From: Escherichia coli | GTDB lineage: Bacteria > Pseudomonadota > Gammaproteobacteria > Enterobacterales > Enterobacteriaceae | Length of the DNA stretch: 64,000 nucleotides | Assembly: GCF_016026235.1 (NCBI RefSeq) | Contig: NZ_CP065613.1 | Reading direction: 5' to 3' (one strand) | Part shown: piece after piece, positions 29,875 to 30,076 of the stretch | Layout of the letters: the number at the start of each line of letters is the position of its first letter | Numbering within the stretch: position 1 is the stretch's first letter | The notes under the pieces: model-generated | The model's database searches: none | Told to the model about the DNA's origin: nothing | What the model saw: the letters and a program-made list of their open reading frames with translations, nothing else | Position numbers and translations under genes: made by a program

Positions 29875-30076
29875 ATTGCACCGCTTTTGTTAACCAGATT
29901 CGCCCGTTTTCTTTCATCTGAAACCAGAGAAAGAAAACGGTGGCCGGCATTGTGCCTTATCCATTCACCGAATGAAACGCTGTTTTTTACCTCAATGGCG
30001 TAAGTATAGTCAATATGCGTTTACATTTTGACCAATAATCCGCCATTCAGCGCGGATTCATATAGCTTTGACCTTC

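Follow-up and report, generated by a model that had tools for sequence, protein, structure and literature searches.

The 202 bp that separate fadJ from sixA in Escherichia coli carry no annotation, and the question raised by this short interval is what a perfect inverted repeat might be doing inside it. The DNA analyzed here (the window, 64,000 nucleotides in length) contains fadI (32221-33531), fadJ (30077-32221) and sixA (29389-29874), all on the minus strand. An initial annotation of the sequence correctly gave the gap between the fadJ stop and the sixA start as about 200 bp, and it reported there a perfect 12-bp inverted repeat at 29903-29940 with a 13-nt loop and no flanking U-run. It judged the repeat not to be a classic intrinsic terminator and offered three roles for it: an element at the 3′ end of fadIJ, a structure in the sixA 5′ untranslated region, or a protein-binding palindrome. 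The first and third of these turn out to be improbable and the second is borne out, and the reading that we favor is that the repeat forms the hairpin of a partial leader terminator.

The hairpin between fadJ and sixA

The inverted repeat is as perfect as was claimed. Its 12-nt arms, 29904-29915 (CCGTTTTCTTTC) and 29929-29940 (GAAAGAAAACGG), are 100% complementary and lie 13 nt apart; the end at 29940 had been placed correctly, and the start at 29903 was one base early. The 13-nt spacing also stands, but it is not an open loop, as four more pairs (TCTG/CAGA) close it around a loop of 4 nt, with 1 nt bulged. The structure, here called HP3 (29904-29940, minus strand), is defined by its sequence, its folding and compensatory changes across species. 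Its minus-strand RNA is 5′-CCGUUUUCUUUC UCUG guuu CAGA u GAAAGAAAACGG-3′, with an outer stem of 12 bp, the 1-nt bulge at 29916, an inner stem of 4 bp and a GUUU tetraloop at 29924-29921. The total of about 16 bp has a dG of -22.3 kcal/mol (z = -4.2 against dinucleotide shuffles), and GCC/GGC pairs (29944-29942 with 29904-29902) may extend it. In E. coli the stem is AU-rich, with G-C in 7 of its 16 pairs. Inspection of the sequence found no T-run 3′ of the repeat on either strand, in agreement with the initial annotation, and a terminator scan did not call the site in E. coli. An Rfam covariance-model scan at the hairpin gave no match at E <= 10.

Seven distinct perfect inverted repeats of at least 12 bp with 3-20 nt loops are present in the window, against 0.13 expected from dinucleotide shuffles, and 7% of the shuffles contained any perfect inverted repeat of at least 12 bp. 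The decisive evidence that HP3 is not a chance repeat is that its structure is kept across about 80 species (see below). HP3 resembles the REP/BIME and ERIC elements in being an intergenic palindrome with co-oriented or convergent genes on its two sides, but it occurs at one place per genome (median 1, maximum 1) and belongs to no sequence family. The 202-bp region that contains it was found, in single copy, in 5425 of 5426 complete E. coli genomes, and a multi-copy repeat element was rejected on this ground.

Promoters and layout of the sixA leader

Published transcription start sites (TSSs) place HP3 within the untranslated leader of sixA. The SMRT-Cappable-seq operon table lists b2340 (sixA) as monocistronic, with a TSS at K-12 position 2456915/2456916, and gives fadIJ a separate TSS at 2460509 (Yan et al. 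2018, PMC6131387); the distances in Adams et al. 2021 (PMC7815308) fix the K-12 sixA ATG at 2456812. The sixA TSS is thus -103/-104 from the ATG, at 29977-29978 of the window (minus strand; a 1-nt offset is possible, depending on coordinate convention). HP3 occupies +38 to +74 of the resulting 103-nt leader, with the TSS 38 nt upstream of the hairpin, which makes it the 5′ untranslated structure that had been one of the three options. The supplements of the 2016 Cappable-seq study, when searched, gave no sixA match. The mapped start lies 5-6 nt past the -10 element of a sigma-70-type promoter at 29984-30013 (minus strand; TTGACT at 30013-30008, an 18-nt spacer, TAAAAA at 29989-29984), and this TTGACT-18-TAAAAA arrangement is invariant across the Enterobacteriaceae in our alignment. 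The consensus scan missed the promoter because its -10 lacks the final T.

Two small hairpins precede HP3 on the minus strand. HP1 (29960-29976; UUCAUUC-ggu-GAAUGGA) is 5′-terminal and has invariant arms and a variable loop, and HP2 (29946-29956; GGCA-caa-UGCC), which holds a conserved AUG, is invariant in the Enterobacteriaceae and is also present in the Yersiniaceae and in L089, a more distant locus. HP3 is followed by an invariant single-stranded tract and initiation region, GUUAACAAAAGCGGUGCAAU AUG (29872-29894), in which the Shine-Dalgarno (SD) sequence GGUG is at 29882-29879 and the start codon at 29874-29872. The SD lies 22 nt downstream of HP3, and no pairing of the SD or start codon inside HP3 was found.

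The HP1 loop and its closing pair (29966-29970, minus strand) occur as reverse-complement pairs between genera (CGGTG/CACCG, CAACG/CGTTG and CATCG/CGATG), and from these sequences the flips look less like a product of selection than of template switching that inverts the hairpin loop. They explain an apparent covariation between the HP1 loop and the base of HP3, which was therefore discarded. A leader peptide beginning at the HP2 AUG was likewise discarded: the upstream reading frame varies from 4 to 71 codons, falls in all three frames and is unconserved in length, frame and stop. Public gene calls include N-terminally extended SixA proteins of 173-223 amino acids in place of 161 (P0001, P0003, P0004, P0005, P0007, P0033, P0037 and P0039), whose starts, inside the leader or beyond it on the upstream side, are presumably false; in E. 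coli an in-frame UAA (GGUUAAC, at -18) prevents any extension of this sort.

A sigma-E-type promoter lies over the fadJ stop codon (30067-30095, minus strand; -35 TGCAACT at 30095-30089, 16-nt spacer, -10 GTCAAA at 30072-30067) and is kept across genera, mostly as GGAAACT-N16-GTCAAA or with the -10 GTCTAA. The sigma-E consensus used for this assignment is the one reported by Rhodius et al. 2006. Such a promoter agrees with the Salmonella sigma-E ChIP-seq peak at sixA "without recognizable consensus" (PMC4577112) and with the induction of sixA together with sigma-E regulon genes under envelope stress (PMC6850105). It would add a second, ~185-nt sixA leader under envelope stress.

Conservation of pairing in a variable segment

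The leader was compared among 80 sixA loci, one genome per species, and nearly all of these retain the fadJ-sixA synteny and a spacer of ~200 bp. Across genera from Escherichia to Klebsiella, Kosakonia and Trabulsiella, essentially no variation is seen in two blocks, one spanning about -140 to -65 and the other running from -25 up to and including the start codon. The HP3 segment is unalignable between genera and ranges from 36 to 59 nt in length, and each of its 75 distinct sequences folds into one hairpin (mean z = -3.05; z < -2 in 59 of 76 leaders, window included). Conservation of the palindrome across the Enterobacteriaceae had been proposed as a check, and it holds for the structure but not for the sequence.

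This conservation is that of an RNA read in the sixA sense. In 70 of 75 cases the more stable fold is that of the sixA-sense strand (mean -20.4 versus -14.8 kcal/mol for the antisense strand; Wilcoxon p = 2e-13), and G-U pairs number 199/1374 in the sense folds as against 72/1160 in the antisense folds. Together, the sense-strand folding and the G-U bias exclude a DNA-level palindrome and an antisense RNA.

Compensatory changes are found at several depths of divergence. Double changes occur in 7 of 9 basal HP3 pairs in an unoptimized MAFFT alignment, and the clade consensus folds have compensatory pairs at 5 of 11 predicted pairs in Citrobacter/Salmonella and at 1 of 13 in Enterobacter. Within Escherichia, 3 of 18 pairs have double changes and all single changes lead to G-U, and the hairpins of E. 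coli strains 2EC1 and K-12 differ by six substitutions that are exactly three compensatory swaps. The basal pairs keep pyrimidines on their 5′ side. RNAalifold missed HP3 when applied to the full MAFFT leader alignment, since the variable region is not structurally aligned there; a helix that it did propose between the 5′ end and the SD was dropped, as it is mostly upstream of the mapped TSS.

The downstream invariant block extends into the gene. From -25 to about codon 10 of sixA (29845-29899, minus strand; loci L003-L082) the sequence is nearly invariant across genera, third-codon positions included, with identity of 0.81-1.0 over codons 1-10 and ~0.45-0.9 after them. This pattern suggests an RNA-level constraint on the sixA initiation region, and the conservation of HP1, HP2 and the -25 to +30 region leaves room for a binding partner.

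RNA 3′ ends downstream of HP3

The initial annotation had also proposed mapping RNA 3′ ends in this region, and published Term-seq data give ends just past the stem. Adams et al. 2021 (PMC7815308; supplementary files 1 and 3) list a 3′ end at K-12 2456833 (-21) in LB at OD 2.0 with 39,893 reads and one at 2456835 (-23) in M63 with 68,010 reads, and the printed sequences of the sixA 3′ ends close ...GAAAGAAAACGGGCGAAUC|UG|. The intergenic region aligns collinearly between K-12 and the window, differing by two substitutions and free of indels, so these ends map to 29895 (-21, equal to +83) and 29897 (-23, equal to +81) on the minus strand, 7-9 nt past the HP3 stem and inside GCGAAUCUGGUU. The M63 read count is greater than the 35,983 of the trpE -25 3′ end in the same sheet (PMC7815308). 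Neither the -21 nor the -23 end was called in LB at OD 0.4; they were called in LB at OD 2.0 and in M63. We take the trpE -25 end to be that of the trp leader attenuator. An ~82-nt leader RNA accordingly accumulates, running from the sixA TSS to a 3′ end defined by HP3. Cleavage by RNase III at HP3 is disfavored, as the 3′ ends lie outside the helix.

A third 3′ end was reported at -117 (window 29991) in LB at OD 0.4, with scores of 6.7 for intrinsic termination and 1.0 ("No") for Rho (PMC7815308). It falls exactly at the foot of a long imperfect hairpin (29991-30050, minus strand; 27-nt arms, 70% complementary), whose 3′ arm includes the -35 and spacer of the sixA sigma-70 promoter. This end probably closes upstream transcripts, and the long hairpin may end those of fadIJ or those initiated at the sigma-E-type promoter.

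The U-tract in more distant relatives

The E. coli HP3 tail, GCGAAUCUGGUU, has no U-run, and the Enterobacteriaceae as a group have the invariant form (A/C)UUCUGGUU. The nT score is 1.5-3.6 in all 76 of their leaders (model tails give ~5), and the d-score, which is of the d'Aubenton-Carafa type, is negative in 76 of 76. Outside this family the same position looks different. In L089, whose SixA is 58% identical, HP2 GGCAAAAUGCC is followed by CGACUC-uuaau-GGGUCG plus CAUUAUUUUUUU and then by AACAAAAACGGUGCACUAUG. In Erwinia a hairpin of 10 bp precedes GUUUUUGUUU, after which comes AACAACAGCGGUGCAUUAUG. Both are terminator-like by the scan, and both place a canonical hairpin and U-tract at the position of HP3. 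At the aligned position Serratia, Yersinia and Rahnella have UUAUUUUGU(U/C) or CUAUUUUUGUU, the Yersiniaceae carrying UUAUUUUGUU where the HP3 tail would be, and Dickeya has CCCUUUUUUCAUUAA. No fadJ was called in the 700 nt upstream of sixA in Pectobacterium and Dickeya, and there the leader still ends in a U-rich tract.

The invariant enterobacterial (A/C)UUCUGGUU aligns with these U-tracts of the other families. The simplest reading of the alignments would be that a leader terminator is widespread in the Enterobacterales and that its U-tract has been weakened in the Enterobacteriaceae; the 3′ ends in E. coli are positioned in keeping with this. The earlier verdict that the repeat is not a classic intrinsic terminator thus holds for E. 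coli, by scan and by tail, but the position is that of canonical leader terminators in distant relatives.

The Yersiniaceae leaders (L087, L088, L091 and L092, from Rahnella, Serratia and Yersinia) are much longer, ~200-330 nt, and share the conserved blocks GUAAAAAACAGCGUUUUCUUUACGCGAACUUUCAGGCAAAAUGCCCG... and ...UACAGCACGC-nnn-GCGUUUCUGUAUAGCG...; Rfam holds nothing that matches them, and they may form a larger leader RNA. Rfam gave no relevant match at E <= 1 for eight distant leaders.

HP3 as a proposed partial leader terminator

We put a probability of roughly one half on the reading that HP3 serves as the stem-loop of a leader terminator (attenuator) whose U-tract is degenerate and which terminates partially and limits the amount of sixA mRNA. 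Transcription would start at the conserved sigma-70 promoter (TSS 29977/29978), and the leader would fold into the two small invariant hairpins HP1 and HP2 and then into HP3. A fraction of the transcripts would stop 7-9 nt past HP3 (29897/29895), 21-23 nt before the sixA start codon, yielding the ~82-nt leader RNA, and the others would read through to give sixA mRNA. The U-tract, intact in some other Enterobacterales, would have decayed to (A/C)UUCUGGUU in the Enterobacteriaceae and to GCGAAUCUGGUU in E. coli, so that only some transcripts would terminate, probably with help from factors or conditions. What is observed is the hairpin, the TSS, the 3′ ends and the conservation of HP3 as RNA structure on the sense strand; from these we infer that the ends arise by termination rather than trimming and that termination sets or regulates sixA expression.

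Several points count against termination. Hairpins without a U-tract generally fail to terminate E. coli RNA polymerase on their own, and here the U-tract is poor, the d-score negative, the scan silent and the 3′ end not called in LB at OD 0.4. Regulated attenuation is unproven, since no antiterminator or other alternative pairing was found: the HP3 arms pair with the upstream leader or the ribosome binding site (RBS) no better than shuffled arms do, and pairing of the 5′ arm with the RBS is a trend only (p = 0.07, not significant). An anti-SD or antiterminator switch, hinted at by a semi-conserved CAYY...RRUG base, was rejected, as its duplex energies do not surpass those of shuffled arms, and Buttiauxella and Atlantibacter have lost the motif. 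If HP3 does attenuate, disrupting it should raise sixA expression, compensatory changes should rescue the effect, and restoring the U-tract (GCGAAUCUGG to GCUUUUUUGG) should lower expression.

Comparison with known systems brings out the same mixture. As in E. coli leader terminators and attenuators (trp, and the premature ends of Adams et al. 2021), HP3 lies between a TSS and a start codon, a stable hairpin has a 3′ end 7-9 nt downstream that belongs to the same Term-seq class ("orphan, upstream ORF"), and read-through carries the gene; unlike in those systems, the sixA U-tract is degenerate in the Enterobacteriaceae, and no antiterminator, conserved leader peptide or known signal was found. 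Canonical Rho-independent terminators are matched in that the HP3 stem-loop drifts in sequence with its pairing kept, that the 3′ end is at the canonical distance and that the Erwinia and L089 counterparts are called under the scan's full definition, whereas the E. coli stem is AU-rich, its tail is GCGAAUCUGGUU instead of a U-run, the scan makes no call and the d-score is negative. The small RNAs ChiZ and IspZ, reportedly from the work of Adams et al. in 2021, are derived from 5′ untranslated regions by premature 3′-end formation. The sixA leader is like them in giving a discrete RNA of ~82 nt that starts at the TSS of the gene itself and has its 3′ end set by a hairpin, but it lacks a conserved single-stranded seed (its stems are conserved and its loops vary), and no Hfq association was found in the searchable RIL-seq supplements.

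SixA has been reported to act on both the ArcB phosphorelay and the nitrogen-related PTS by removing phosphoryl groups, so SixA dosage sets signaling output. We know of no account of how sixA is itself controlled, and a conserved leader terminator together with the sigma-70 and sigma-E-type promoters would be a concrete control point. HP3 has no description in the searchable literature, and the transcript ends are already present in published supplementary tables. It would be a clean natural case of a terminator hairpin held by compensatory evolution, even within one species, as its U-tract decayed, and it bears on how "U-less" hairpins yield Term-seq 3′ ends.

Other explanations for HP3

Termination and trimming are hard to tell apart at this site, since exonucleases stalling at a stable hairpin would leave identical 3′ ends. 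It is possible, if on the unlikely side, that HP3 is a barrier to 3′-exonucleases: either RNase E or MazF would cut the single-stranded stretch GGUUAACAAAAG, rich in A and U, that separates HP3 from the RBS, or transcription would terminate further downstream, and trimming by PNPase or RNase II would follow, as far as the hairpin. The ~82-nt RNA would then be a stable decay intermediate, and HP3 would be selected for mRNA stability or for insulation of the initiation region. The lack of a U-tract at HP3 suits such a role, and it is general knowledge that stalled exonucleases also leave ends 7-9 nt past a stable stem. The sequence GG|UUAAC resembles the preference of RNase E. The -21/-23 ends are seen only in stationary phase and minimal medium, and a published MazF cut falls at an ACA located 16 nt before the sixA AUG (PMC5001579). 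Against the barrier stand the canonical terminators at the same position in Erwinia and L089, the alignment of the conserved (A/C)UUCUGGUU with the U-tracts of other families and the Rho score of 1.0 ("No") near the locus in LB at OD 0.4; nor is there an obvious gain from protecting a leader fragment.

A more ambitious and, we think, unlikely idea is that the whole sixA leader is a cis-regulatory RNA of the Enterobacterales that senses a protein, RNA or metabolite and gates the SixA phosphohistidine phosphatase by premature termination, with HP3 as a sequence-free expression platform. Such a leader may be linked to the upstream sigma-E envelope-stress promoter, and the released ~82-nt RNA may have a function of its own. 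In a related and rather improbable version, HP3 is a structural module of a larger regulatory leader in which HP1, HP2 and the initiation region sense a protein, RNA or ligand and HP3 is a spacer or an expression platform for control of translation or termination. The flanks of HP3 and the third positions of sixA codons 1-10 are indeed conserved far above neutral expectation, HP2 is kept into the Yersiniaceae and the basal HP3 pairs hold pyrimidines on the 5′ side. On the other hand, Rfam has no matching family, the HP3 arms pair with the upstream leader and the RBS no better than shuffled arms, Buttiauxella and Atlantibacter have lost the CAYY base, and sixA is absent from the searchable Hfq RIL-seq supplements, including a 2025 set.

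That HP3 terminates the upstream fadIJ operon or stabilizes its 3′ end, as first proposed, is very unlikely. HP3 does lie downstream of fadJ on the same strand, but a separate 3′ end (-117) is found at the base of another hairpin, 86 nt past the fadJ stop and with an intrinsic score of 6.7, and sixA has its own promoter, whose TSS falls between that end and HP3; in Pectobacterium and Dickeya, moreover, the sixA leader still ends U-rich with no fadJ called in the 700 nt upstream. Least credible of all are the views that the repeat arose by chance or is a DNA palindrome to which a dimeric protein binds. Its perfect symmetry in E. coli K-12 speaks for them, but its sequence is hypervariable with pairing kept, G-U pairs make its structure strand-specific, its length varies from 36 to 59 nt and the locus is single-copy.

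Other features of the window

Directly after the sixA stop codon, a perfect 14-bp hairpin followed by a T-run (29345-29377) is the canonical sixA terminator. The sub-threshold Rfam matches there (RefA9, STnc240 and C0465) are all weak and probably reflect a generic resemblance among terminators. Five more perfect short-loop inverted repeats of at least 12 bp lie at 7774-7808, 35726-35754, 37274-37305, 55178-55216 and 61150-61186, and the sequence of the one at 35726-35754 matches the published fadL 3′ end. Finally, an intact open reading frame of 883 amino acids (25461-28112, minus strand) is present where K-12 MG1655 annotates the fimbrial usher gene yfcU as a pseudogene with an internal stop, which suggests that the strain of the window carries an uninterrupted yfcU.
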